Source: an uncultured Alphaproteobacteria bacterium (GTDB taxonomy: Bacteria > Pseudomonadota > Alphaproteobacteria > Rhizobiales > Kaistiaceae). From it: 64,000 nucleotides of DNA. How positions within the stretch are numbered: position 1 is the first letter of the stretch; the number at the start of each line of letters is the position of its first letter. Made by a program: the position numbers and the translations under genes. The stretch spans positions 122,104 to 186,103 of the forward strand of contig CAWEUQ010000008.1 of NCBI GenBank assembly GCA_963812275.1. The letters run 5' to 3'. The notes below the pieces were generated by a model, which was not told where the DNA came from, made no database searches, and saw nothing but the letters and a program-made list of their open reading frames with translations. Shown in pieces: positions 25,247 to 49,429 of the stretch.

Positions 25247-26600
25247 ATGCGATCCGACCTCATCGCCCGCTACGCCGACGAGCGGCTGCCGCGCTACACG
25301 AGCTACCCGACCGCCCCGCATTTCACGGCGGATATCGGCCCGGACGTCTATGGCGACTGGCTGGCAGCGCTGCCGGCTCATGCCGTGGGCTCGCTCTATG
25401 TCCACGTCCCCTTCTGTCGCCGCATGTGCTGGTATTGCGGCTGCAACACGGCCGTATCGCAGCGCGACGAGCCGATCGCCGCCTATATGGGATCGCTGAG
25501 CGACGAAATCGCCATGGTCAGCGCGCGGATCGGACGCCCGCTCGACGTGGCGCATCTCCATTTCGGCGGCGGCACGCCGACCATCGTCGGCCCTGACGAT
25601 TTTCGGCGGGTCATGGATACGATCCGCCAGGCCTTTGCCCTCCGCGACGACGCGGAAATCGCCATCGAGATCGACCCGCGGACCCTGACCGCCGCGATGG
25701 CTGAGGCGCTCGGCGCCGGCGGCGTCACCCGCGCCAGCCTCGGGGTGCAGACGCTCGATCCCGACGTGCAGGCGGCGATCAACCGCCGCCAGGGCTTCGA
25801 CCGGACCCGCGAGGCGATCGACCGGCTGCGGGCGGCGGGCATCGCCGCCATCAATATCGACCTGATCTATGGCCTGCCCCGTCAGACGCGTCGAATCCTG
25901 CATCGAGACCGCCGATGCGTGCCTTTCCCTGCGGCCGGATCGCTTCTCGGTCTTCGGTTATGCCCATGTCCCCGCCTTCAAGAAGCATCAGCGCAAGATC
26001 GACGACGCCGCCCTTCCCGGCGGCCGTGAGCGGAACGCCGCGGCCGAGGCCATCGCCCGGCGACTGGTCGAGGGTGGCTACCAGCGGATCGGCCTCGACC
26101 ATTTCGCCCGGCCGGAGGATGCGATGGCGGTCGCCGCCCGCCAGGGAGAGCTCCATCGCAACTTCCAGGGCTACACCACCGACCCGGCCGATGTGCTGAT
26201 CGGGCTCGGCGCCTCGGCGATCGGTCGCCTGCCGCAGGGCCACGTCCAGAACGTCACCGTCACCCGCGACTATCGCGCCGCCATCGCCGAAGGCCGCTTC
26301 GCAACCGCCAAGGGCTTCGCCCTCGGCGACGACGATCGCCTCCGCGCCGCGCTGATCGAGCGGCTGATGTGCGATTTCCGCGTCGACATGGAGGCCGTCT
26401 GCCGCGTCCACGGCGGCACTATGGCGGCCGTCGCCGACGCCTTCCCGGCGCTCGACCGGCTGGCCGTCGAAGGCGTCATCCGTCGCGACGGATCGCTGAT
26501 CGAAGTCGACCCGGAAGCGAGGACCCTGGTCCGCGCCGTTGCGGCGAGCTTCGACGCCTATCGGGACCACGCGACGCGGACCCACAGCCCGGCGCTCTGA
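25247..26600 (+). CDS. hemN: Oxygen-independent coproporphyrinogen III oxidase (frameshift near 25887)
   Basis: [20 protein letters not shown] radical-SAM motif, [22 protein letters not shown]. Confidence 0.93.
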
Positions 26601-35654: not shown

Positions 35655-36479
35655 ATGCGCCTCAAGATCCGCCATGAAACATCCTACGTCTACGGGACGC
35701 CCGCCAATCGGGCCATCCAGATCCTGAGGCTGACGCCGCGCGGCCACGACAGTCAGTTCGTCGTCAACTGGCGGATCGACGTCGATCACGACTGCCGGCT
35801 CGATTCGTCCCGCGATCCGTTCGGCAACGCCGTCCACTCCTTCACCGTCGAGGGACCGCTCGACGGCTTGACCATCGTCGCCGAGGGGATCGTCGAAACC
35901 CAGGACAATCACGGGGTCGTCCACGGCCAGGCCGAGCGGCTGCCGCTTCCGGTCTACCTCCGGGACACGCCGCTGACGCGCGCCAGCCCCGGCATCCGCG
36001 CGCTGGCCGAGCAGGCCTCGGCCGCCGCCGGTCCGGATACGTTGCCCATTCTCTACGCGATCATGAACGGCATCCGCGACCGTCTCGATTTCGTCGTCAA
36101 CGTCACTGACTCCGGAACCACCGCCGTCGATGCCTTCTCGCTCGGTCACGGCGTCTGCCAGGATTTCTCCCATATCTTCATCGCCGCCGCGCGCCACATC
36201 GGCCTCCCCGCCCGCTATGTCAGCGGCTACCTGTTCCACAGGGAGATGCTCGACGGTCAGGCGGCCGGTCATGCCTGGGCCGAGGTCCTGGTCGACGATC
36301 TCGGCTGGGTCGCCTTCGATCCGGCCAACGGCATCGCGGCGACGGATTCCTACGTGCGGATCGCCGTCGGCCTCGACTATCTCAGCGCCGCGCCAATCCG
36401 CGGCGCCCGCTACGGCGGCGCCGACGAGACCATGGACGTCAGGATCCTGGTCAACGAGTCGGCCCGGGCAACCGGATAG
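35655..36479 (+). CDS. Transglutaminase family protein
   Basis: MRLKIRHETSYVY, GVCQDFSH (Cys), RYVSGY, HAWAE, FDPAN, GLDYLSAAPIRG. Confidence 0.94.
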   Translation: MRLKIRHETSYVYGTPANRAIQILRLTPRGHDSQFVVNWRIDVDHDCRLDSSRDPFGNAVHSFTVEGPLDGLTIVAEGIVETQDNHGVVHGQAERLPLPVYLRDTPLTRASPGIRALAEQASAAAGPDTLPILYAIMNGIRDRLDFVVNVTDSGTTAVDAFSLGHGVCQDFSHIFIAAARHIGLPARYVSGYLFHREMLDGQAAGHAWAEVLVDDLGWVAFDPANGIAATDSYVRIAVGLDYLSAAPIRGARYGGADETMDVRILVNESARATG

Positions 36480-36686
36480 CCTGGACGAGACCGCGACCTC
36501 ATCAACGTGGAGCGCCCGGTGGCGGACGGGAGGTATACGATTAGGCGCCGCCAGGGCTGGGCGGGCGGAAGCCTTGCGGCGAGTCGCCGAAGCGGCGGCG
36601 AAAGATGCGGTTGAAGTAGGACAGGTCGCCGAAGCCGGCGGCGATTCTGGTCAACGAGTCGGCCCGGGCCACCGGATAGCCTGGAC
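36443..36686 (+). repeat. 44-bp direct repeat of the transglutaminase 3' end (36443-36486 and 36643-36686)
   Basis: GAT[C/T]CTGGTCAACGAGTCGGCCCGGGC[A/C]ACCGGATAGCCTGGAC; 200-bp offset; both mismatches are third codon positions. Confidence 0.92.
36541..36645 (-). pseudogene. Orphan 3' fragment of an AraC-family regulator
   Basis: Translates to IAAGFGDLSYFNRIFRRRFGDSPQGFR...*, the AraC second-HTH signature; cut off exactly at the second repeat copy. Confidence 0.8.
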
Positions 36687-36883
36687 CGGGCAGCAAACTT
36701 GAGCGCATAGCGTATGGTGACGGACGAGCGTCCCTTTGGGCAGTTTTCCGGACGTTGGTCAGGGTCGGCGACGTCTGACGTTCTATGGAAGCCCGTCACT
36801 CGACGGATGGATTGCCGCTCCCGCCCTGTCGCGATTTGGCTTCTGCCGGTTTCTTGGACGCCTTTGGCACCGCCACTGAAACG

Positions 36884-37925
36884 TCAACTGCCGAGCAGTC
36901 GCTTGAACAACCCCGACCTTGGGCGCGGTTCCATGAGTCGTTCAATCGTCGCGTCGATAAGAAGGTCCTCACCCGCCAACAAACCGACACGCCCCTTGCG
37001 GGCTTGCAGGGCACCGCCGGGATCGGAGCCGGCAAGAATTCTCGGGGAAAGGGTCAAGTCCCAGGCCCGAACTTGCCGCCGCGAGGAAATCCCCCACGAA
37101 ACGAACCTGCTCGGGGCGTTCGACGTTCGACAAGTCGAACTGCCATTTGCCCCGTATCCGGCGATTGACCGCCATGTCGACGATCATCGCGAACAGGCGC
37201 AGCCTTTCCTCCGCGCCGATCAGCGGGTTGACGTTCTCCAGGACACCCAGGCACCAGTCGAGAGCATCCTTCCACAACACCTCCTTGGGGCGTTCCAGCA
37301 GGGTATGCGTCAGCGAGCCCGGCCGGATGTGGCGGTAGTACATGAGCTTCGGCACGCGATGCAGTTCGCCGGTTCGAGCGACCGCCATGCACCATGTACT
37401 GACGACGGTGATGGGCAGCGAGGCGCGCATGGCATCGGCGCGGACCAGGCATCGAATGACAGCAGGGTCGTAGCCGGTGACCTGTCGCATCACCCGCTCC
37501 AGCGCGAAACCGGATTCCGACGGCCTCCGCACCAGCCGCTCGATGTCGCCGTAGATCTGCATGTCGCAGTAGATGCTTGCAGCCTGTGGATGACGAACGG
37601 CGTGTTCGACCAGGGTTTCGAGATATTCCGGATCGCAGTGGTCGTCGTGCTGCCAGTAACAGAAGAAATCCTCCCGCAACTGCTCGCCGAGCCACGTCAT
37701 GTTGCCGTCCCAGTTCAACCGTTCGCGTTGAAGAGCGACTTCGACCCGAGGGTCGTCCATGAAGGGTCGGCAGGCATCGTACGAGCGCTGGTCGTTTCCA
37801 TCCACCGAGATCAGGAGCCGATAATGCTCGTAGGTCTGTTGTAGAATCGACTCGAGCGTCCTGCCGACGTGTTCCCACCCCTCGAACAGGGGCATCGCGA
37901 TCAGGATCGAGGGTGAGGAAGGCAT
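36884..37925 (-). CDS. Glycosyltransferase family 2 protein (probable frameshift near 37047)
   Basis: ILIAMPLFEG, ISVDGND, YWQHDD; a shifted frame continues RILAGSDPGG...GLFKRLLGS* to 36884 (uncorrected stop 36969). Confidence 0.8.
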
Positions 37926-39205
37926 CAGCGGTCCCGCTCGCTGCGCGTTGTATCGGCGACGTCGGGGGATGCCCTGCCGCCCCAATAGAATTCCGGTCTT
38001 GGCGGCAAGATCCGTCGCGCGCATTCTGCCGCGAAGAACGGCGCCATCGTGAGCTTTCCCGGATCGATGCTGTGATAGTGGCCAACGGACGTCACGCCGA
38101 TCTCGAATCGCCGGTGCAATTCACTTCCCGGATCGTCAATATCGGTTTCGCCCCAGGCAACGATCGGGCCTCCCCGGACCATGACGTCGTGCGAAGCGTC
38201 GAGGTCACATGAGCCGAGCGCCGGCAATATTCCCGCCAGCGCGTCGAAGGTGCCATGAAGGATTTCCGATCTCAGCGGCTCTGCCGGATAAATCGGCCAG
38301 TTCGGTGGCGACAACTCCGTGGTGAACGCCCGCAGACACGCGGGATACCAGGTAAGGTAGAGCGATCCGTTGGCGTAGCTGACGACCTCCCCGAATGGCC
38401 CCAACACGATAGTGATCGACCGGTCGACATGCGAGCCGGGTGGCGGACGAAAGGCCACGCCATATTTCAGGCGGTGTACCCAGGGCCTCTTCGGACGCAG
38501 CCCTCGTCCGCTGTCGATCGCCAGGCGGCCGTCCCACAGGGCGTTGACCACATGGTCAAATCCGGTTCGTCGCATTCCGCCCGACACCACTGAGACCTCA
38601 AGTCGATCGCTGCCATCAACCGAGACGACCTCCTCGCCAAGCCGGACATCGATGTTTGGCGTCTGCGCGATACGGTCTTTGATAAGCAGCGCCAGGGCGA
38701 CCGGATCGATCGCGACTTCAGGCGATGTGAAGGCCGCGCATATTTCGGCGGGGTTGAATTCGCGCTCCAGGTCCGCCGGCGACCAGGCTCTGATCGGCGC
38801 TCGCAAGTCGATGCCGAAGTAGGCGTCATCGTCCGCCGCCTGCTCCTGAATGAGCGCGTGAACGGCCGAAAGGTAGGCATGGACTTCGTCCGCCGGCCTC
38901 TGGGAATCTCGATGCACGACATAGACCGCCGGATCGGACGTTGGCAGATCGTTGCACGAAACACCTAGAAGAGTGCTGAGGAATGGGGCGAATGAAATAG
39001 CGCCCGTCATCATCATTCGAGCGGTCGCCAGGGTCGGGTCGCCCGCATACATGTAGCCGAGGTGAATCTTGCCCTCGTTGGCGATGGCAGCCCGGCTCAG
39101 CAGTTCCGAATTTCGGTCTATCAGCGTGACGCGCGCGCCGCCGTCTGCCAACGCCATCGCCACGCAACATCCCTGAAGCCCGCCACCCAATACCGCTACA
39201 TCCAT
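37925..39205 (-). CDS. FAD-dependent oxidoreductase (DAO-like) in a glycosyltransferase cluster
   Basis: MDVAVLGGGLQG Rossmann start, ANEGKIHLGYMY, DHVVNALW, SIDPGKLTMAP; TGATG coupling to GT2. Confidence 0.8.
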   Translation of the reverse strand: MDVAVLGGGLQGCCVAMALADGGARVTLIDRNSELLSRAAIANEGKIHLGYMYAGDPTLATARMMMTGAISFAPFLSTLLGVSCNDLPTSDPAVYVVHRDSQRPADEVHAYLSAVHALIQEQAADDDAYFGIDLRAPIRAWSPADLEREFNPAEICAAFTSPEVAIDPVALALLIKDRIAQTPNIDVRLGEEVVSVDGSDRLEVSVVSGGMRRTGFDHVVNALWDGRLAIDSGRGLRPKRPWVHRLKYGVAFRPPPGSHVDRSITIVLGPFGEVVSYANGSLYLTWYPACLRAFTTELSPPNWPIYPAEPLRSEILHGTFDALAGILPALGSCDLDASHDVMVRGGPIVAWGETDIDDPGSELHRRFEIGVTSVGHYHSIDPGKLTMAPFFAAECARRILPPRPEFYWGGRASPDVADTTRSERDR

Positions 39206-39282
39206 CCCGACGATCCCGCTCTCCTGCTTCTTCGGATGCTGACGCCCGCACACTAGCCGCATCGAGGGGCGCAAGCAGTTGC

Positions 39283-40119
39283 CTACCGGTTCCACTCCCA
39301 GAAATGGAGTCGTGTCGGAGCCGAAAGGTCAAACGTCGGGTAGTCGAAGCGCGGCAGCCTTTTGAGGAGAGCCCCACGTTCGGGGATCGCAAGCGATGCC
39401 TTGGTGAATTCGCGACGGTTTACGTGCCAACCACGTTGGAGATCGCGTTCCGAGAATTGCCTGTTGAGATATTTCTGGAGCGCATGCTGCTGACTGCGGA
39501 CAATATAGTGGCGCAGGATCAATTCCCGGTCGGAGATGCGCAGGTCGTCACATTCGAAGCGATGACCACCGGTCCGCTCCATCGAGCCCTGCAAGCCGGC
39601 CTTCCAGATACGAACGAGTCGCACGGGAACCGGACGAAAGTGGTAGTAGTTTAAGTTGTTCTCCAGATGATTATCCAAATCCCGGTCGACCGGAAGCATC
39701 ACAACCTCCTGCAAATTGATCGCGCTGAAACCGCGTTGATCGGCCAGTTCGATCTCTGCTCGCAGGCCTCCAAATCGATCGGGGGATTGCATCAACTCGT
39801 CGCTATCATGATTGACAATCCAGCCTTCCGAGATGGAACGCGCTTCCTTCATTTTCGCTTCGAGAAGGGCTGAATGGTCGTAATGACCAGGATACGGCAA
39901 CCTGACGATCTTCTTGAGATTTGAATATCGGCCGCTTTCCAGTTCGGGGAGGGTTAAATCTTGAGACCCATTGTCAACAACGATCACCCTCACCGCTTCT
40001 CTTTCGAAGTAGCTCAAGAGAAACGGTAGATAGGCCCACTCGTTGCGAGTGGAAAGAATTGCCGTAATTGGGAGCATTCGCGTGCTTCTGTCAGGCTCAG
40101 GCGCGCAAGGATTCGACAC
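39283..40119 (-). CDS. Glycosyltransferase family 2-like protein
   Basis: AILSTRNE, VIVVDNGSQD, WIVNHDSDE, GGHR, LRHY; visibly lower GC with TTA codons. Confidence 0.8.
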   Translation of the reverse strand: MSNPCAPEPDRSTRMLPITAILSTRNEWAYLPFLLSYFEREAVRVIVVDNGSQDLTLPELESGRYSNLKKIVRLPYPGHYDHSALLEAKMKEARSISEGWIVNHDSDELMQSPDRFGGLRAEIELADQRGFSAINLQEVVMLPVDRDLDNHLENNLNYYHFRPVPVRLVRIWKAGLQGSMERTGGHRFECDDLRISDRELILRHYIVRSQQHALQKYLNRQFSERDLQRGWHVNRREFTKASLAIPERGALLKRLPRFDYPTFDLSAPTRLHFWEWNR

Positions 40120-40594
40120 GATGCCATTCGATTCGGCGGAGCGAACTGCTTCTCCTCGGCCCGAAATGATACCTGTGCACCATACGTCTTCCTTCCGAGG
40201 CCACGAATCCCAAGTCCACCGGCGGAGAAGTCTTTCCTAATCCGGGACCTCGGGCAAGGTCTTGTCCTCGCGTTGCCTTGTGCGGCCGCGTTTGAACAAC
40301 GGAACCGCATCCGGAGAATGTACAGGGCTGCGCGCTTGCGACTCCACGCCCTGGCGATTTCGGGCTGAACCGGCTGGCGGTATGCCAGGCCCGGGCACGC
40401 GCCGCCGCACAAAAGCGGTTTCGATGGTCGATCCCCGGATCGTCCAGTCAGGCGGTCGGACGCGATGCCGGTTTCCTGGACTGTTGGCATCTGGCAACGC
40501 GGCAATATGCGGGGGGCGTCGCGCGAGATTCCGATTGCCAGCGGGCCGACTTCCCCCGACAGTCACGGCCGGAACGGAATCGTATTGAACCTCG

Positions 40595-41341
40595 ATGACA
40601 TATTGCGTGGGCATTCTGGTGCAGGAAGGGTTGGTGATGATCGCCGACACCCGCACCAATGCCGGTCTCGACAATATCGCGGTTTTCCGCAAGCTCCAGC
40701 ATTTCGAGGAACCCGGGACCTGCGTCTTCGGGCTTGCCACCGCCGGTAATCTGGCGGTCAGCCAATCGGTGCTGACGCTGATCACCGAAGGCTTCGAGAA
40801 CCCGAAAACCGGCGAGATCGAAACGCTGATCAGGGCTCCCAGCATGTTCAAGGCCGCCCAGCTGGTCGGCCGCGCCATCCGCGAGGTCCACCGCGTCGAT
40901 GGCATCTCCGAGGAAATGGCGCAGTCCGGCCAGTTCGACGTGACGGTGCTGCTCGGCGGCCAGGTCAAGGGCGGCCGGCTCAGGCTGTTCATGATCTATT
41001 CGGCGGGCAATTTCATCGAGGCGACCACCGACACGCCCTACCTGCAGATCGGCGAGCACAAATACGGCAAGCCGATCCTCGATCGGGCGATCACCGAGAA
41101 GACCGACCTCTACGACGCGCTGAAGATCGGGCTGATCTCGATGGATTCGACCATCCGCTCCAATCTGACGGTCGGGCTGCCGATCGACCTGCTCGTCGTC
41201 CACCGCGACGCGATCGAGCCGGACCTGATCTATCGTATCGACGAGACCGAGCCCTATTTCCACGATCTGCGCGAGCACTGGTCGGCGGCATTGCGCGAAG
41301 CGCATCAGGCGATCCCGAAGCCGCCCTACAGCATGGAATAG
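40595..41341 (+). CDS. Proteasome-type protease (Anbu)
   Basis: MTYCVGI (Thr1 nucleophile), ADTRTNAGLDNI, AGNLAVSQ, YSAGNFIEAT, QIGEHKYGKPILDR, SMDSTIRSNLTVGLP. Confidence 0.93.
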   Translation: MTYCVGILVQEGLVMIADTRTNAGLDNIAVFRKLQHFEEPGTCVFGLATAGNLAVSQSVLTLITEGFENPKTGEIETLIRAPSMFKAAQLVGRAIREVHRVDGISEEMAQSGQFDVTVLLGGQVKGGRLRLFMIYSAGNFIEATTDTPYLQIGEHKYGKPILDRAITEKTDLYDALKIGLISMDSTIRSNLTVGLPIDLLVVHRDAIEPDLIYRIDETEPYFHDLREHWSAALREAHQAIPKPPYSME

Positions 41342-41356
41342 GCCGCATCGCCGTGG

Positions 41357-43078
41357 TCAGGCATTGATCAGAGACGCGTCGGCACCGGCAATTTCGATCG
41401 TCGCCGTCGCGATAGCGGTTCCCCCGTAGGTGTCCTGGACCGTGTAGGTGAAGCTGTCGTAGGCAGTGTCGTCGGCGGCAAGGTTCTCGAACGCGCCGTT
41501 GGGATCATAGGCGAATGTGCCATCGGCGTTGATCGTCACCAGCGCGCCGGAGTCGAGCGTGACGACCTCACCATCGGAGACGGCTTCGCCGCCGATCGCT
41601 GTGACGGCGAACGAGTCGCCATCGTCGACATCGAAATCGGCACCGTTACCGTTGTCGTCGAACAGGTTGCCGCCCACGACAGACGCTTCGTCGGTCTGAA
41701 ACCCATCGTTCTGCGCTTCCGGATTGTCGTTGACTCCACCGATGCCAACGATGTTCGAGAACGCGGTCGACGCGCCGTGCCGGTCGGTCGCGGTGAAATT
41801 GATGGTCACGTTGGTGACTTGACCCTCGGCCAGATGGTCGAAGCCGACATTCGTGTCGAGCTTGAACGAGCCGTCGCCGTTATCGACGATCGACAAACCG
41901 GCCGGAACATCGATCGCGTAGGTCAGGGTTGCGGCGTTGTCGTCGGAATCGCGATCGGTGACCCAGTAGCCGTAAACCGCGGGACCGCTGTCCTCGAACT
42001 TGATCTCAATTCCGATCGGCCCAAATGGGCGGGTGGGCGCATCGTTCTCGCCGGTTATCCGGATCGTCGCCGTCGCATGATTGCTTTCCGCGCCGTGGCT
42101 GTCTGTGGCCCAATAGGTGAAGGCGAAGTCCCGCGTCTCTCCCTCCGCGAGCGCCTGCACGTCGTCGCCCATGACCAGGGAGAACGTGCCATGCTCATCG
42201 TTGAGGAAGTCGGCGGTCGGATTGGGAAATGAGCCGGCAAACGGCGGGGTCTGCATTCCAGGACTGGTGTAGAGCAGCGTTCCGGGGTCATCCTCCGGAT
42301 CGGCGTCGTCGGCGTCAAAGGCGTAGACACCGGCTGCCTGATCTTCGCTCACTTCGTAGACCACGTCCGATGCAACCGGGGCCGTGTTGTCATCGACGCC
42401 GTCGATGGTGATCTGGAACGTCCGGGTGATTGTATTCGTCCCGTCGGACAGGTCGAAGGTCACGGTGTCTGTCGCCGAGTCGCCCGTGTTCAGGTCCTCG
42501 AACTGACCGTTGGGGTCATAGACGAATGTGCCGTCTGCGTTGACCGTCACGAGCGCCCCGGAGGCCAGGGTAAGCTCAATGCCGACCGCAGCCGCATTGC
42601 CGTCGACGCCGCTGATGGTGATCGTGTCCCTCTCGAAATCGAAGGCATCGGAAGCGGCCAGCAGGTCACCGCTGAACCCATGATCCTCGTCGGTGGACAG
42701 CGCCACGTCGTCGGCGATCACCGGGTTGTTGCGGCCGTCGAGGAAAATTTCCGCGTTGTCGAAATGGAGCGTCTCGATGCCGATCAGCGCATCAGTGTCG
42801 CCGGAAGCCGCGTCGGTCACAAAGAGGGTCGGTCCCAGCGACAAGAAGCCGTGGTCCTGTGCCCGGCCGGCGAAGACCGCGGTATCGTTCCCCGCGCCGC
42901 CGTCGATAAAGTCGCTTCCGGCGCCACCTGTGATGATGTCGTCGCCCTTGCCGGCAAGGATTACGTCATTCCCACCGCCGGCGTCGATCGTATCGTCACC
43001 CCTCCCCGACAGGATGAGGTCGAAAAAGGCTGTCCCGAGAAGGTTGTCGGCACCCCTCCCCCCGATCAGTACGGACAT
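41357..43078 (-). CDS. Calcium-binding RTX-repeat protein with tandem VCBS/Ig-like (cadherin-like) domains
   Basis: Six GGxGxD-type nonapeptides at the N-terminus; repeated LASGALVTVNADGTFVYDPNGQFEDL / LDSGALVTINADGTFAYDPNGAFENL, GENDAP and GVNDNP motifs; AGGGGGAG RBS. Confidence 0.85.
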   Translation of the reverse strand: MSVLIGGRGADNLLGTAFFDLILSGRGDDTIDAGGGNDVILAGKGDDIITGGAGSDFIDGGAGNDTAVFAGRAQDHGFLSLGPTLFVTDAASGDTDALIGIETLHFDNAEIFLDGRNNPVIADDVALSTDEDHGFSGDLLAASDAFDFERDTITISGVDGNAAAVGIELTLASGALVTVNADGTFVYDPNGQFEDLNTGDSATDTVTFDLSDGTNTITRTFQITIDGVDDNTAPVASDVVYEVSEDQAAGVYAFDADDADPEDDPGTLLYTSPGMQTPPFAGSFPNPTADFLNDEHGTFSLVMGDDVQALAEGETRDFAFTYWATDSHGAESNHATATIRITGENDAPTRPFGPIGIEIKFEDSGPAVYGYWVTDRDSDDNAATLTYAIDVPAGLSIVDNGDGSFKLDTNVGFDHLAEGQVTNVTINFTATDRHGASTAFSNIVGIGGVNDNPEAQNDGFQTDEASVVGGNLFDDNGNGADFDVDDGDSFAVTAIGGEAVSDGEVVTLDSGALVTINADGTFAYDPNGAFENLAADDTAYDSFTYTVQDTYGGTAIATATIEIAGADASLINA

Positions 43079-43316
43079 CGGAAATCTCCCCCTTTTTATG
43101 CACCATCGATGCGGTCGATGGCGCCCCGCCTTCGACACTAATTCGTGGGCGAGGACATGCACGGACCAACCGGCCACGGAGTGAATCCGCGGTTATGGCG
43201 TCACATCGAATTTGGTAAGAATGCTGCCGGGTGTCCGACACCACGGATGCGTGGCGGCGTCGGGACGTTGCCGGATGGTGCAGCGTCGACGGAGTGACTG
43301 CCCCGGCGGCTCGCCG

Positions 43317-43525
43317 TCAGACCCGGCTTGCCTCGATCCGCGTGCCCGGTGACACCCGGGCGAGAATGCGGACATCGTCGGCAGTGGTTGCCCAGATATT
43401 GGCCGGGCTCGCCAGCCGGATCTCGTCGCCGCGGCTGACCGGCGTCGGCCCGAAGCCGATTGCGATCGCGTCGCCGTCGGTCCAGAAGGCGATTTCCCCG
43501 GCTTCGACCACCGCCCGCGCGTCCG
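43317..43525 (-). pseudogene. Truncated copy of the cyclophilin-like gene (3' half only)
   Basis: [28 protein letters not shown]...IEASRV*; no 5' half. Confidence 0.88.
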
Positions 43526-43780
43526 GCGGTCACCGAAAAGACCGACCTATATGACGCGCTGAAGATCGGGCTGATCTCGATGGATTCGACCATCCGCTCG
43601 AATCTGACGGTCGGGCTGCCGATCGACCTGCTCGTCGTCCACCGCGACGCGATCGAGCCGGACCTGATCTATCGCATCGACGAGACCGAGCCGTATTTCC
43701 ACGACCTGCGCGAGCATTGGTCGGCGGCGCTGCGCGAGGCGCATCAGGCGATCCCCAAGCCGCCTTACAGCATGGAATAG
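43525..43780 (+). pseudogene. Truncated copy of Anbu (3' third only)
   Basis: [26 protein letters not shown]...PPYSME*; no start or catalytic Thr. Confidence 0.9.
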
Positions 43781-43884
43781 GCCGCGTCGCCGTGGTCAGG
43801 CATTGATCAGAGACGCGTCGGCACCGGTAATTTCGATGGTCGCCGTCGCGGTCGCGGTTCCTCCACGCACGCTCCGTAGGCGAG

Positions 43885-45295
43885 TCAATTCGGATCGACT
43901 TCCGTCACGGGTGGAGGCGCCCAGGTGCCATCCAGTGCGGCTTCCTTCGGCCAGTAGAGCCGCATGACGAGCAGGAAGGGCCCGTCCGGCGCCGGCAGCC
44001 AATTGGCCTTTTCGTCGGGATCGGTCGGCTCATCCTTCTGGATGTAGAGCTTGACCGAACCGTCGGCGTTCTTCTTGAGGTCCGGCAGCATGGGGGAGTT
44101 GACGAGATAACGGTCGATCTCGTTTGCAACCAGCAGCTTCGTCCTGGCGTCGTACATGGTCACCGACCAGAAAGCGTGGACCGGTGGCAGCTCGCCCGGC
44201 GGGAAGGTCAGCGTGTATCGATGGGCGCCGCCGTCCTTTTCGGTGAAGGGATAGAGGGCCTCGGCTGCATCGTTACCGTAGATGCCTTTGACGGCGGCCG
44301 CTGCTCTGAGCAGGTAGTCTTCGCCGAGCATCGCCCTGGACCCGAACCCCTCTCTGCTGATCTGCCATCCGTGTATGTCGTGACCCCAGTCGGCGGCTCG
44401 CTGGTGGATCTTTTCCGCGCCGGCTTTCAGCCCCTCGATCAGCGCCGCCTTTTCCTGATCGGACCACCCCTCGGTCGAAAAGGGCTTGCCCGGCACGATC
44501 CCGATGCTGGCGAACTTCTGCCGCAGCGGCTTCTCGACGGCTGCGGAACCTGTCGCCGGGGCAAACTGGAGCAGGAAGGAAAGATAACCCAACGGGTCTT
44601 TCGCCGCCAATTCCTTGTCGATCTTGGGCCATGTCACCGGCGGGGCCGGTTGCGGCGACTTCTCATCGAGAAACGCGGAAAGCGGCCGGACGCTGTACTT
44701 GGCCTGAATGGCCTTCACATTGTCGATATCGGCCGGATCGAAAAGCTGGGTCCGGAAGATGGCAAAGGCGAAATCAGTACCGGACTTGAAAGCCTTGTCG
44801 ATCTTTGCGGGCTTCTCTCCGGTCCAGGACGGACCGGAGATCAGGTAGCAGCCTTGACCGTTTCCGGTCGCGCGGCTGCCGATGTAGCCGAAGTTGTATG
44901 TGTAGAGTGAAACGAGCTGGACGGAGTAATACCGATCCTTCGGTATCTCGGGAACGCAGACGACCTGCGGCTCGGCGCGCAGGTCCATCCAGACGAACGA
45001 ATACGGCGTATCGCTGTTGGGCAGGATGACCGCCGTGTCGGCCGGCGTGTAGACCTTCGCCTCGTTGACGAGTTCGTTGAACGGCCCCTTGAATTGCGGT
45101 CCATCCCTGTCGACGGCATATGCGTACATCGTGCCGTAGTTCATGACCATCGGCAGCGCGTAGATTGCCGCCTGTTCGGCGATCGTCCGGATTTCGTCCG
45201 TCGAGGGACGTTCCTCCGCGGCGATGGTCAATGGGGATGCGGCCAGGCTCAGTAGCGCAACAGCGGCCAGGAGATAACGCGCGCCATCGATTCAC
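43885..45295 (-). CDS. DUF1254/DUF1214 family secreted protein (frameshift in signal peptide near 45280)
   Basis: AIYALPMV, PNSDTPYS...DLRAEP, RYYSVQL, YTLTF...PPVHAFWSVTMYD, NWLPAPDGPF...RLYWP; signal-like RYLLAAVALLSLAA upstream of ORF 43885-45231. Confidence 0.85.
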
Positions 45296-45425
45296 CAATC
45301 CCTTTGCGTGATTGCGGACTGCTTCCAACCGGCATTTCAGCAACAAACCCACCGGCCGGGAGCGCGGTTAGCGAGCAACGGGTCAGCCGCCGCCATATCG
45401 CGGCGGCCAACCATCTCATTCGGAG

Positions 45426-46391
45426 CTACGGCTTGTAGTTGCTCATTCCGGGACCGGTCTTGTCGTAGATATTGAAGAATTCGTCCGCCATGATCGTGGC
45501 GACTCCTCCTTCCGGAACTTCGTGGTTGTCCTGTTCCAGCTCGACGACACGCACCTTCCACCCCTCCGGGAGATTCTTGAAGTTGGCTTCCCCGGCGGCC
45601 ATGAACTCTTCGTAGGTGTGTTGCGGCTTCAGGCCCAACTCGAAGCCTTTCATGATCCATGTGTTGCCATCGGCATCGTCGATGAGCATCACCCGGGTGC
45701 CCTTGTTCCAGTTGATCGCGCTCTTCCGAGCAATTTTCTGCGGCTCGTATGGCTTGATGGTGTGGATGCTGAGATTCTTGCCCATACTGAGTTGAGCAGT
45801 CCAAGGGGCCTTCAGTCCGCCGAACTCCCGAACCTTGCCAACTTCGACATCGAACCAGTCGGGGATCCAAAGTTTGGGGCCATTCAGGGAAGCGCCCAGA
45901 ACGCCGTATTGTTCCTTGATTTGGCTCATATTGAGTGCAGCAACAAGCGACTGCGGAGCGGAGTCCTTGTCAGCGGGAATATCCGGGTTGGCATAGGTAC
46001 CGTAGCACTCGGCGACGATGTCTCCCGTTTCCGGATCGATGCCGGCAAGGTACATCTCGATGAAACGCATGAGATGGGAGTTTTCGATGCGCTTGGTCAC
46101 GGCGTGATCGCCGTCGGAAAGCACCGCAGGTTCGGGCTCGGCCAGCGCCTTGAGGCATCCTTGCGACAGGTCCGCAACATGCTTCGCCATGCAGGCCTTG
46201 ATGCGTCCCTCGCCGGGAAGCACGCCGTCGCAATTCCGTGCGACGTCGCCCGAACACTCCCGGACGACATCAACACCATGGTCGAGCTTTTCCCACGCGC
46301 CTTCCGCAAGCGCCGGCTGTGCCAAGGCACCCAACGCCGCAGCGGCAATCCAGAGGCTCTTCAGGCCGACAGATCCATTCCAGTTCATCAC
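45426..46391 (-). CDS. Secreted protein: one Cys-rich repeat plus a domain of unknown function (paralogue of 46525-47322)
   Basis: Signal peptide ending ALA; CSGDVARNC...GRIKAC...LSQGC; shared NGP, RKS, DxDGxxWxM, PxGWKxRV, DExxNxYD motifs. Confidence 0.8.
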   Translation of the reverse strand: MMNWNGSVGLKSLWIAAAALGALAQPALAEGAWEKLDHGVDVVRECSGDVARNCDGVLPGEGRIKACMAKHVADLSQGCLKALAEPEPAVLSDGDHAVTKRIENSHLMRFIEMYLAGIDPETGDIVAECYGTYANPDIPADKDSAPQSLVAALNMSQIKEQYGVLGASLNGPKLWIPDWFDVEVGKVREFGGLKAPWTAQLSMGKNLSIHTIKPYEPQKIARKSAINWNKGTRVMLIDDADGNTWIMKGFELGLKPQHTYEEFMAAGEANFKNLPEGWKVRVVELEQDNHEVPEGGVATIMADEFFNIYDKTGPGMSNYKP

Positions 46392-46524
46392 CTATTGCTC
46401 CCTAGCTCGGCAGGTCGAACTTCTCCGACAGCCCGCGGTTCAGTGTTAGCCGCGGGCTGTGAGAGGTCTTTCCTTCTTGCGCCACGCCGCAACAGCATGC
46501 CTTCAGTTGGTGAACAGCCGGCAC

Positions 46525-47322
46525 TCAAGGCTGAAAGCTGCAAGCGTCTTCCTTGCAGGCGTCGTAGGTGTTCTGGAGTTCGTCCTGGACGATCCAGTTG
46601 TAGCCTTGGGGGGTCGAGACGGTCAGGTCCTTGTCCAAGGTGGCGACGCGGTACTTCCATCCGGCCGGCGGCTTGATCTTGTCGCCGAGGTTCATGAGGT
46701 CGTCATAGGTCAGGCTCGGGTCGACGATCTTGCCGAATGCCTGCATCACCCACGGCGTGCCGTCAGGATCCTCAAGGATGAATACCGGCTTGCCCTTCTC
46801 GAAGGTGAAGCTCGATTTCCGGTGCGACTTGAGCTCCTGGTAGGGCTCCATATGCGCGACCTTCAGGCTCGCGCCCTTGGGAAGCTTGCCTTCGCCCATC
46901 CAGCGGGTCTCGATGCCGTCGAAGGCGATAACCGGGCCGACCGGGAGCGTGATCGAGTCCATGGTCCAGCCGCGCGGGCCGTTCTTGTAGGCGCCGATGA
47001 CGTCGTATTGCGCTTCCAGCCCCTTAACCGTCACCTTGTCCCACATGTCGGCGGGGCAAGTGTCTGTCTTGTCGACGCTGTTGTTGAGCGCGCTCGTGTT
47101 GTAGTAGACGCCGGCAATGCCGGTTTCGGGCGTTCCGGTGAACAGCCACACCTCGCAATACTGAACCGCGCGGAGCGACTCGTACGTCATGTCGGCCGGC
47201 TTTTCCGGAATCGGGACGGGCTCCCGGTCCGCGGCAAAGGCGGGCGCTACAAGGACGCTCGCCAGCAGGGCAGCAAGCAGGCTGGCTCGACCAGCCAAGA
47301 CCGTCGTCAGTTGTGATTTCAT
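46525..47322 (-). CDS. Secreted protein of unknown function
   Basis: Signal peptide ending AFA; strong RBS; aligns along its length with the C-terminal domain of 45426-46391. Confidence 0.8.
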   Translation of the reverse strand: MKSQLTTVLAGRASLLAALLASVLVAPAFAADREPVPIPEKPADMTYESLRAVQYCEVWLFTGTPETGIAGVYYNTSALNNSVDKTDTCPADMWDKVTVKGLEAQYDVIGAYKNGPRGWTMDSITLPVGPVIAFDGIETRWMGEGKLPKGASLKVAHMEPYQELKSHRKSSFTFEKGKPVFILEDPDGTPWVMQAFGKIVDPSLTYDDLMNLGDKIKPPAGWKYRVATLDKDLTVSTPQGYNWIVQDELQNTYDACKEDACSFQP

Positions 47323-47483
47323 GTCCTTCCCTTCCCACGCTGGAGCGCGTTCTCGCATCGGGACCGCGCCACGTTTCGACAAGTGCAACCCGCTCGCAAA
47401 AGCTGTAGCCTTGCGCAATAATCGCGATGAACCGGCGACCTCTTGTGTCGGCCGCGGTTGGGAAGGGTAGTGATCAAAGATCG

Positions 47484-48569
47484 ATGTTGCCGGCCACCCA
47501 TTTTGCGCCAGAGCCCCAGCGACTTTCGGCGCGATCGTTCCTCAGTTCAACGACGCTGATCACCGTCACTGCGCTGGCGGGCGTGTCGGGCTTCGTCCGC
47601 GACGCTTTTGGCGAACGCGTCCTGAAGCACGCCAACCACGCGGCGATGCTCGATATCGAGGCGATCGAGGACAAGGACTGCTTCGTCCCGCACCTCGTGG
47701 TTTCGAGCTTCGCGGACACCGTCGCGCATCTCTCCGGCGAGGAGCATTTCGGACTGATTGTCGCGCCCCATTTGACGATAGCCAGCAAGGGCTGCTGGGG
47801 CGAGTACATGCTCGGCGCGCCGACGCTGGGCGAAGCGATCGAACGCGGCATTGCGACAATCGGCTACCACAGCCTCGGCGATAGTATGTCCCTGGTCGTC
47901 GACGGCGCGGAGGCGCGGTTCGGCTACAGCAGTGCCGCGAAGGGACAACCCGGGTATGCCCACGTCGCCCTCGGCTCGGTGGGTATCATGTTGAGTCTCT
48001 GCAGGGAGTTCCTTCCCGCGCGATGGCGCCCGCTACGGCTTGAGCTGGATTTTCCGACGCCGGGCCGCCCCTCGATCTTCGAGGATGCTTTTGAATGTCC
48101 GGTTATCTTCGACGCCCCGGAACTTCTGATCTGCTTCGAGTCCTCAGGGCTGATCAGACGTTCGTCGCGCGGTGGCGAATATCCCCGGCTGACAGTCGGG
48201 GATATTGCCCGCGCGCGATTCGACTGGGGCAAGCTCGACAGGCCCGGCGACATCATCGCCCAGCAGGTCTGGGCCCAGGTGCTGACGGGAACAGTTTCGA
48301 TCGAGAGCGCCGCCGCCTCCCTGGATACGAGTGTGCGCACCCTGCAGCGCGAACTGAATCGCGAAGGAACGAGCTTCCGGGACCTCGCCAACACCCTGCG
48401 GGCGAAACGTGCGATGGAGCTGCTGCGGGAGACCCGCTTGTCGGTGACCGAGATATCGGCCACTCTCGGCTACTCGGCGCCGGCCCATTTCGCTCGTGCT
48501 TTCCGCAATGCAGTGGGTATCAGTCCGCACGAGTTCCAGCGGCATCATCCGCCGAAGGTCGCAGCTTAG
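47484..48569 (+). CDS. AraC family regulator (OruR-like N-terminal ligand domain)
   Basis: APTLGEAI, FECPVIFDA, SVRTLQRELNREGTSFRDL, SVTEISATLGYSAPAHFARAF; divergent from the secreted-protein genes; start uncertain. Confidence 0.9.
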   Translation: MLPATHFAPEPQRLSARSFLSSTTLITVTALAGVSGFVRDAFGERVLKHANHAAMLDIEAIEDKDCFVPHLVVSSFADTVAHLSGEEHFGLIVAPHLTIASKGCWGEYMLGAPTLGEAIERGIATIGYHSLGDSMSLVVDGAEARFGYSSAAKGQPGYAHVALGSVGIMLSLCREFLPARWRPLRLELDFPTPGRPSIFEDAFECPVIFDAPELLICFESSGLIRRSSRGGEYPRLTVGDIARARFDWGKLDRPGDIIAQQVWAQVLTGTVSIESAAASLDTSVRTLQRELNREGTSFRDLANTLRAKRAMELLRETRLSVTEISATLGYSAPAHFARAFRNAVGISPHEFQRHHPPKVAA

Positions 48570-48689
48570 GACAAGGGGCCGGTATCAGATCTAGTTGTCC
48601 TTAATGTCGATGCAGCCCTTGAGGCCGGACTGGTCGTTCGGCGACTTTCAGCAATGATGATGTCCGAGTTGGGTCACGAGCTGCCTTCG

Positions 48690-48978
48690 TGGCGCGACCT
48701 GCCAGATCAGTATGGTCCTTACACAACTTGCTATAACCGTATCGTCCGTTGGCGACGCGCCGGCGTTTGGGATCGCCTCTTCGAGGCCGTTGCCGATCTC
48801 GACAAGCCAACCTGAAGATGATCGACAGTACCGTCGTGCGTGTTCATCAGCATGGCGCGAGCGTTCGGCGCGCCGCCCGCCACTGCACCGGACGTTCCCG
48901 CGGCGGTCTGACGACCAAGATTCATGCCGTGGTGGACAGCCAAAGGCTGCCGCCGCGCTTCATGCTGAGCGCCGGCCA
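48690..48978 (+). mobile_element. Internal remnant of an IS5-family transposase
   Basis: WRDLPDQYGPYTTCYNRIVRWRRAGVW, then (shifted) MIDSTVVRVHQHG...GRSRGGLTTKIHAVVD; no ends seen; cut at the repeat boundary. Confidence 0.85.
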
Positions 48979-49057
48979 GTGGCGGCGTCGGGACGTTGCC
49001 GGATGGTGCAGCGTCGACGGAGAGACTGCCCCGGCGGCTCGCCCCGGCGGTTCGTCG

Positions 49058-49429
49058 TCAGACCCGGGTTGCCTCGATCCGCGTGCCCGGTGACACCCGG
49101 GCGAGAATGCGGACATCGTCGGCAGTGGTTGCCCAGATATTGGCCGGGCTCGCCAGCCGTATCTCGTCGCCGCGGCTGACCGGCGTCGGCCCGAAGCCGA
49201 TGGCGATCGCGTCGCCGTCGGTCCAGAAGGCGATTTCCCCGGCTTCGACCACCGCCCGCGCGTCCGCTTCGCGCGGCACGGAAATATCGGTGCCGAAGTA
49301 GACCTCTTCGCCCCATGTCAGCGCTGAACCGCTGAACGGCAGCGCATCCCAGATCGCGTCGGCGGTCGGTGTGTCGCGGAGATCGAGGGTGATCGTCACA
49401 CCCTCGAAATCCAATGTCATTTGCCGCAT
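49058..49429 (-). CDS. Cyclophilin-like fold protein
   Basis: [13 protein letters not shown]...TWGEEVYF...[20 protein letters not shown]. Confidence 0.85.

Follow-up and report, generated by a model that had tools for sequence, protein, structure and literature searches.

The interval between a gene for a proteasome-type (Anbu-like) peptidase and a convergent cyclophilin-like gene, in the genome of an uncultured, Bauldia-like alphaproteobacterium from soil, carries two different sets of cargo genes, and between these sets lie displaced ends of both flanking genes, fused to one another. Probably a relative's version of this cargo slot was added beside the resident version by one illegitimate join and one homologous exchange, so that the locus would be a recombination scar and not a device. 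The stretch analysed (the window, 64,000 nucleotides) is C8:122104-186103, part of contig C8 of a 4.97-Mb genome in 31 contigs, the closest named relative of which is a metagenome-assembled genome (MAG) of Bauldia sp. Unit 1 comprises the Anbu gene and cargo X, a gene for an RTX-type secreted protein; unit 2 is the side of cargo X', which consists of a DUF1254/DUF1214 gene, two genes for secreted paralogues and a gene for an AraC-family regulator. Positions given without a contig name are those of the window.

Results

Architecture of the locus

The tandem arrangement is marked by two pairs of repeats. Repeat A, at the 3' end of the Anbu gene (41083-41425 vs 43522-43864), extends over 343 nt with 93.9% identity (BLAST E 1e-147). 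Repeat B, at the 3' end of the cyclophilin-like gene (43251-43525 vs 48979-49266), extends over 275 vs 288 nt and is 98% identical apart from a 13-nt indel (E 2e-125); it includes 66-79 nt of flanking sequence beyond the gene. The repeats and their junction go far beyond what chance would give, and no further copy of either repeat was found elsewhere in the genome. The displaced copies, B' and A', abut at 43525/43526, where B-derived sequence ending in ...GCGCGTCCG runs straight into A-derived sequence starting with GCGGTCACC... and one G fits either side. Both stubs start at arbitrary codons (codon 165 of the Anbu gene, about codon 55 of the cyclophilin-like gene), as is expected of random fragment ends or breaks. 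At this joint no DNA has been lost and the ends of both flanking genes are duplicated.

The RTX gene tip carried by A' has 5 differences from that in the first copy of the repeat. The 13-nt indel of repeat B is a tandem duplication (CCCCGGCGGCTCG / CCCCGGCGGTTCG) at 49031-49056, just 3' of the resident cyclophilin-like gene, and the stub has one unit.

In the first-pass annotation of the window the gene order had been given as Anbu, X, two stubs, X' and cyclophilin-like gene, all of which were found in that order. Its duplicated 3' ends of both flanking genes correspond to repeats A and B, and the back-to-back fusion that it placed near 43525, with about 1 nt of microhomology, to the joint with the single shared G; the RTX 3' tip of some 70 bp on the second Anbu copy measures 69 nt. 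The description was accurate and was refined at two points: the true cyclophilin-like open reading frame (ORF) is the one of 123 aa at 49058-49429, not a longer overlapping frame, and the IS5 relic, a part of unit 2 that has lost both its ends, runs exactly up to repeat B.

Origin of the two units

The Anbu copies have 14 differences in their 252 shared coding nt, and all but one of these are synonymous (13/14). The sole non-synonymous difference, Ile/Val, lies 4 nt from the junction. For random single-base changes in these codons, 24-28% would be expected to be synonymous, and the probability of obtaining at least 13 out of 14 is 9e-8 to 8e-7. Synonymous divergence between the Anbu copies is about 0.2, and neither the Anbu stub nor the cyclophilin stub contains a frameshift. 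Between the cyclophilin copies there are 3 coding differences, of which 2 are synonymous. One unit is thus foreign and stems from a functional allele: with synonymous changes so dominant and no frameshift present, the Anbu copies diverged as working genes in separate lineages and were joined recently, which is not what duplication in place followed by decay would give. The copies differ at the same sites in every model, and the outgroups, at 83% identity, are uninformative as to which unit is the resident one.

Plain tandem duplication, with equal content in both units and neutral divergence of the copies, does not fit, as the cargoes are unrelated and the divergence is almost purely synonymous. 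In a more elaborate variant, the slot was duplicated in tandem in place by illegitimate exchange between sister strands and one of the units was then exchanged for a relative's allele by two-sided homologous recombination. This would produce the same topology, and bacteria often, if transiently, carry tandem duplications with microhomology joints. However, it needs more events, and the unstable duplication would have to persist meanwhile. Replacement of unit 2 is excluded, since donor-type synonymous sites reach to within 4-8 nt of the junction and no homology is left there. Replacement of unit 1 is just possible, with the right crossover in the 64 identical nt that end B', but this confines the crossover to a window of at most 64 nt. 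Such a history is considered improbable.

Flanking genes and cargo

The features of the locus are collected in Table 1, together with those discussed below. The Anbu label is based on a weak PF00227 proteasome match and on the upstream Alpha-E and transglutaminase genes; the protein keeps 74-86% amino acid identity across relatives. The RTX protein of cargo X, which is adhesin-like, also has NCBIfam matches to VCBS and to the BapA-family C-terminus. The two secreted paralogues of X' are 31% identical to each other, and no family match was found for them in Pfam or NCBIfam.

Table 1 Features of the Anbu/cyclophilin-like locus (window positions) and related features elsewhere in the genome (with contig names)
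Feature	Position	Strand	Description
Full-length proteasome-type (Anbu-like) peptidase gene	40595-41341	+	PF00227, 24 bits; left resident flank of slot
Repeat A, copy 1	41083-41425		Anbu 3' 255 nt, 15-nt spacer and RTX 3' tip (69 nt)
Cargo X: RTX/Big_9/cadherin-like secreted protein, 606 aa, intact	41357-43177	-	Pfam Big_9, Cadherin_4, HemolysinCabind
Repeat B' stub	43251-43525	-	66 nt of cyclophilin downstream flank and 3' 209 nt of the cyclophilin-like gene
Illegitimate B'/A' junction	43525-43526		Three-way comparison of the junction with the full-length genes; 1 nt (G) microhomology
Repeat A' stub	43526-43864	+	Anbu 3' third (from codon 165), spacer and 69-nt RTX 3' tip
Second illegitimate junction	43864-43865		RTX tip cut; last position homologous to unit 1 is 43864; X' starts 20 nt ahead of the DUF1254 stop codon
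Cargo X': DUF1254/DUF1214 protein, 448 aa	43885-45231	-	88% identical to homologue in G008:C81
Cargo X': secreted paralogue 1, 321 aa	45426-46391	-	GC3 0.73; signal-peptide-like N-terminus
Cargo X': secreted paralogue 2, 297 aa	46525-47418	-	Not in the G008 module
Cargo X': AraC-family regulator	47427-48569	+	Pfam Arabinose_bd and HTH_18; divergent from the three-gene operon
IS5-family transposase relic, frameshifted	48687-48978	+	DUF4096 positions 45-76 of 76; DDE_Tnp_1 positions 8-57 of 200
Repeat B, resident copy	48979-49266		3' 209 nt of the cyclophilin-like gene and downstream flank
Full-length cyclophilin-like gene, 123 aa	49058-49429	-	PF04126, E 7e-34; right resident flank of slot
Mini junction	36447-36686		Last ~11 codons of the transglutaminase gene, stop and 7 nt (36447-36486) again at 36647-36686, 200 nt downstream
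SDR gene-end duplicate	C17:40578-40679 / 42521-42622		4 synonymous and 1 non-synonymous difference
MATE-gene stub in convergent pyrD/MATE gap	C12:25236-25517 / 26261-26543		88% identity, frameshifted
Other duplicated 3' ends	C31:149532-149580 / 151491-151538; C31:332819-332886 / 335017-335084; C31:172554-172643 / 177836-177926		
Other duplicated 3' end	C5:251198-251258 / 251828-251888		
Overlapping contig ends	C13 end/C14 start; C23 end/C24 start; C6/C9; C2/C3/C18 end; C26/C4:770-776 kb		

Mobile-element machinery

A six-frame PF00589 search of the whole 314-kb contig found no tyrosine recombinase, and Pfam scans found none among the ORFs. There is no tRNA between 30 and 56 kb, and no match to Rfam families or to plasmids was obtained. 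The unit borders have neither inverted repeats nor an intact insertion sequence (IS) with both ends, the sole IS being the doubly truncated IS5 relic. An IS-bounded element was ruled out, since the relic has lost both ends and lies inside unit 2.

Integrase-mediated islands leave the same order of full gene, cargo and displaced 3' stub, and X' has the IS5 relic at its right edge. On these grounds one might propose a site-specific or transposon-type element that inserts at gene 3' ends and brings a replacement end with it, giving an att-like duplication. Against it stand the results of the recombinase, tRNA and inverted-repeat searches; the repeats themselves, which at 275-343 nt and 94-98% identity are diverged and have no identical att-like core at the joint; and the IS relic, which without its two ends does not bound the repeats. 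Such an element is very hard to credit. Ku is encoded in the genome, which makes end joining with an overlap of 0-1 nt plausible.

The slot in related genomes

The Anbu and cyclophilin-like genes are convergent neighbours in 10 genus-level and several family-level relatives; the comparison was made at the genus level and beyond, with genomes from outside the species. In these genomes the gap between the two genes is 31 nt (G004, an empty slot in which the stop codons nearly touch), 67 nt (G002, likewise empty), about 790-910 nt (several genomes), 1047 nt (one genome), 2871 nt (G007), 3025 nt (G008) or 11898 nt (G001). The cargoes are unrelated among the relatives and comprise a Stf0-like P-loop protein, an SDR protein, a TIR-NTPase-TPR protein, DUF899 with an ABC transporter, and a 12-kb set that includes RTX-like genes. 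It is well supported by this comparison that the Anbu/cyclophilin interval is a hypervariable cargo slot in the genus.

In the Bauldia sp. MAG the cargo of the slot (G008:C8 3899-6541) is a single protein of 880 aa with a TIR-like N-terminus, a P-loop NTPase and TPR-like repeats, which is a defence-like (NLR-type) architecture. In G002, where the slot itself is empty, the intergenic gap beyond the cyclophilin-like gene holds an RTX-like gene (C5 3387-5055) with 61-65% amino acid identity to cargo X.

A module resembling X' is also present in G008 (C81 6741-10469). It consists of two genes and the AraC gene, lacks paralogue 2, and its homology with the window starts at 43895. The context is unrelated and the DNA identity is 87.5%, vs 78-83% for the core flanks; identity above that of the flanks in a different context indicates that X' is mobile cargo. 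The nearest genomes are about 83% identical in the Anbu gene (DNA) and, for the DUF1254 protein, the nearest homologue in another genome has 88% identity. The Anbu, cyclophilin-like, DUF1254 and RTX proteins gave no match in exact-sequence look-ups.

Proposed mechanism

The tandem would consist of two allelic slot versions, the RTX version and the version with DUF1254, secreted paralogues and AraC. DNA from a diverged relative, cut inside the Anbu gene and inside the cyclophilin-like gene, would have been added rather than exchanged, for which a single homologous crossover, placed in a gene end common to both, and one illegitimate join with 1 nt of microhomology (B'/A', 43525/43526) would be needed. 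If the join came first, a linear fragment of 5.7 kb (5741 nt) or 2.4 kb (2439 nt) would have been circularised by Ku/LigD-type end joining, and a Campbell-type single crossover in the 275-nt (98%) or 343-nt (94%) homology would have followed. If the join came last, one end would have invaded homologously and the other, whether the end of the fragment or of run-off synthesis, would have been joined to a chromosome end; this would be homology-facilitated illegitimate recombination (HFIR) without deletion. The order A-X-B'/A'-X'-B is what results when one slot allele, circularly permuted, is inserted into the other, and the two routes give the same product and appear to fit the sequence equally. 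The anatomy, the foreign origin of one unit, the variability of the slot and the absence of a recombinase from the contig are shown, whereas any order of the steps, resident unit, enzymes or route of DNA entry would be a matter of inference; the source organism is not known to be transformable, as the hosts of HFIR are.

The first-pass annotation had offered the same two mechanisms, HFIR or integration of a circularised slot, and both fit. Its idea of a slot is upheld by an interval that varies from 31 to 11898 nt with differing cargo among genus-level relatives, its attribution of one unit to a relative by the 13 synonymous differences out of 14 in the Anbu coding sequence, and its statement that integrase, tRNA att site and IS ends are absent by the PF00589, tRNA and ORF searches.

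The direct repeats (343 nt at 94% and 275 nt at 98%) may later recombine in a RecA-dependent manner, removing either unit. As either unit could be lost in this way, the tandem would be a natural counterpart of the merodiploid intermediate of two-step allelic exchange.

Further junctions and stubs

Two more junctions of the same style were found within 7 kb, at 36645/36646 and at 43864/43865. At 43864/43865 the body of the RTX gene is gone, and the deletion of recipient DNA that is a feature of HFIR is thus found here. The right border of the X' unit falls at the same point as that of the RTX unit (43251/48979). X' would have replaced the RTX body, all but 69 nt, in one lineage before the tandem was joined, and the junction looks like classical one-sided recombination with deletion, with its anchor in the cyclophilin flank and its illegitimate join in the RTX gene.

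At the mini junction upstream of the Anbu gene, a convergent 35-codon fragment of an AraC C-terminus (36541-36645, minus strand) is cut at the start of the second copy of the transglutaminase gene tip, and GAT (3 nt) is shared. The source of this fragment was not found in the slots of the relatives. The copies of the transglutaminase tip differ at third codon positions. The Alpha-E/transglutaminase/Anbu operon is split here by 4.1 kb; the transglutaminase and Anbu genes are adjacent in five relatives, which suggests that the intervening 4.1 kb is cargo too. On the opposite strand, 36687-40527 encodes two GT2 glycosyltransferases and an FAD oxidoreductase, and the GC content falls to 0.53 at 39.5-40.2 kb. 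The same gap in G004 holds 6.3 kb with two DUF1254 paralogues.

The junctions at 36646 and 43525 would be linked if a single 6.9-kb donor block (36646-43525) had replaced the recipient's DNA from the AraC gene to the 5' part of the Anbu gene through two illegitimate ends, whether the block was captured at a break with the help of Ku or entered by double illegitimate recombination. The block would contain the transglutaminase tip, the 3.9-kb glycosyltransferase/oxidoreductase cargo, Anbu, RTX and the cyclophilin stub. Its two ends are junctions of the same style, with 3 nt and 1 nt of microhomology, the transglutaminase-tip copies resemble the Anbu copies in differing at third codon positions, Ku is present, and the transglutaminase-Anbu adjacency in relatives makes the 4.1 kb cargo. 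In experiments, however, one-sided events outnumber double illegitimate recombination by orders of magnitude. The rarity of the double event counts against the block, as does the long homology in the recipient (Anbu and transglutaminase), which should favour homologous exchange, and no evidence ties the two junctions together in time. A single donor block is, on balance, an unlikely origin for them.

Comparison of the genome with itself revealed further genes whose 3' end recurs 0.5-5 kb downstream of the full copy (Table 1). One of the stub pairs on contig C31 brackets another DUF1254/DUF1214 gene with an AraC-like remnant. The decayed stubs cannot be assembly errors and are evidence that scars of this type form in this lineage and last; the whole set suggests that the same scar-forming process acts genome-wide.

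A further reading can be proposed, with considerable doubt, from these junctions. In this lineage, attachment without a recombinase might take place at the 3' ends of convergent core genes, and circular slot alleles, made by Ku/LigD or by pop-out across the repeats, might act as RecA-dependent cassettes that enter the homologous slot of relatives, stack there and leave it. The three junctions within 13 kb and the several 3'-end stubs elsewhere would then be traces of such a cycle, the slot would be reversibly 'heterozygous', and accessory genes would accumulate genome-wide.

Reliability of the assembly

The assembly, 90% complete and with a single rRNA operon inside a contig, was probably binned from long reads of a sample in which related strains occur together. 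One rival explanation is an assembly artefact, in which the slot versions of two co-occurring strains were stacked in one contig by a chimeric read or a mis-join. Several results do weigh against the addition of a relative's slot version, and some of them bear directly on this possibility. Contig ends in the assembly overlap over 5-11 kb with 97.5-99.6% identity, clustered substitutions and few indels. These overlaps may be caused either by strain heterogeneity or by long diverged repeats, and they bear on the trust to be placed in structural variants of the assembly; taken with the probable strain mixture, they raise the prior for a strain-mixing artefact. The first difference between A and A' lies 4 nt inside the stub, as the boundary of a strain bubble would show. 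A 26-mer across 43525 is absent from the genome and metagenome contig collections, and one specific to the A' allele is absent from the metagenome contigs. No strain with only X or only X' was found. The divergence is uneven, 5.5% in A vs 1.5% in B, so that mosaic ancestry or gene conversion has to be assumed; this is a hint, not proof, of mosaic ancestry or of conversion around a crossover in B. Finally, in classical HFIR and in experiments, recipient DNA is usually lost and not duplicated.

The artefact draws support from the resemblance of the assembly to a long-read metagenome bin, in which the unmerged contig-end overlaps suggest strain mixtures, from a repeat divergence (1.5-5.5%) within the local range of those overlaps, and from the position of the first A/A' difference, only 4 nt from the junction. 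A strain-bubble boundary is at odds, on the other hand, with the last B/B' difference, which lies 64 nt from the junction. With 1 nt shared at the join, neither a de Bruijn graph nor an overlap graph can make it without reads that contain it, and it is very unlikely that a chimeric read arising at random would link two strains at the same 8-kb locus and in direct order. The assembly contains no leftover alternative contig of the region. The same anatomy is seen at 36646, with its dead-end AraC fragment, and in the older, frameshifted stubs, which stacking of strains cannot explain. An artefact accordingly seems unlikely, if somewhat less so than the donor block or the duplication in place, and the addition of a relative's slot version by host recombination is preferred.

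Perfect 50-nt tandem repeats also occur at or near contig ends (C10:61177-61751 and C5:282690-282965).

Discussion

Most chromosomal hotspots of gene gain have no mobile-element genes, and how they are filled is usually inferred from patterns of presence and absence. At the locus described here, host recombination and end joining would have sufficed to add a relative's slot version, so that the cargo doubled in a single step, and the repeats left behind would permit later sorting to either allele. If reads confirm the junction, this would be a clean natural example with which to discuss additive vs replacive exchange at hotspots. It also provides a simple signature with which other genomes could be screened: stubs of the two flanking genes, fused to each other and differing only at silent sites.

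Comparative genomics has defined chromosomal integration hotspots as intervals flanked by core genes with variable cargo. The Anbu/cyclophilin slot resembles them in having different cargo in each relative between conserved genes and no mobile-element genes. The hotspot concept, however, describes a pattern, whereas this locus also keeps the junction of one event of gain.

Campbell-type insertion-duplication is the single crossover of a non-replicating circle with the chromosome, as in suicide-vector merodiploids. As would be the case here, the whole circle is inserted, the segment of homology is duplicated in direct order with the closing joint inside, and the product can be resolved to either allele. 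The difference is that the circle, here a hypothetical one, would be a natural fragment of a relative's chromosome closed by end joining, and not a plasmid.

HFIR has been described in naturally transformable Acinetobacter, Pseudomonas stutzeri and Streptococcus pneumoniae (PMC5361080, citing de Vries & Wackernagel 2002, Meier & Wackernagel 2003 and Prudhomme et al. 2002). It shares with the proposed event one homologous anchor and one join of minimal microhomology, by which DNA of a relative is added without a mobile-element enzyme. At 43525 the microhomology join (1 nt) and foreign DNA with shared anchors (94% and 98%) are both present, and deletion of recipient DNA is not. Unlike in HFIR, the sequence around the join is also present on the incoming DNA; nothing is lost, and each of the two gene ends now occurs twice.

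The closest natural parallels are the arrays at polymorphic-toxin loci. Kirchberger et al. (PMC5361080) proposed that HFIR-like insertion keeps old immunity genes in the effector-immunity arrays of the type VI secretion system of Vibrio cholerae; the same additive idea is cited there for displacement of Rhs C-termini, as are the orphan modules of contact-dependent inhibition (CDI) systems. In these arrays, as here, new alleles are added beside old ones, stubs of a conserved upstream gene are left, and the HFIR-like proposal involves no integrase. The cargo differs, consisting here of RTX/Big_9, DUF1254/DUF1214, secreted-paralogue and AraC genes and not of toxins and immunity proteins, and the slot lies between two convergent housekeeping-type genes. 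The stubs of both flanks are fused, which implies that a whole slot allele was added. The process is thus already known in principle, and the Anbu/cyclophilin locus adds a clean new case to a class of recombination scar that has been described before.

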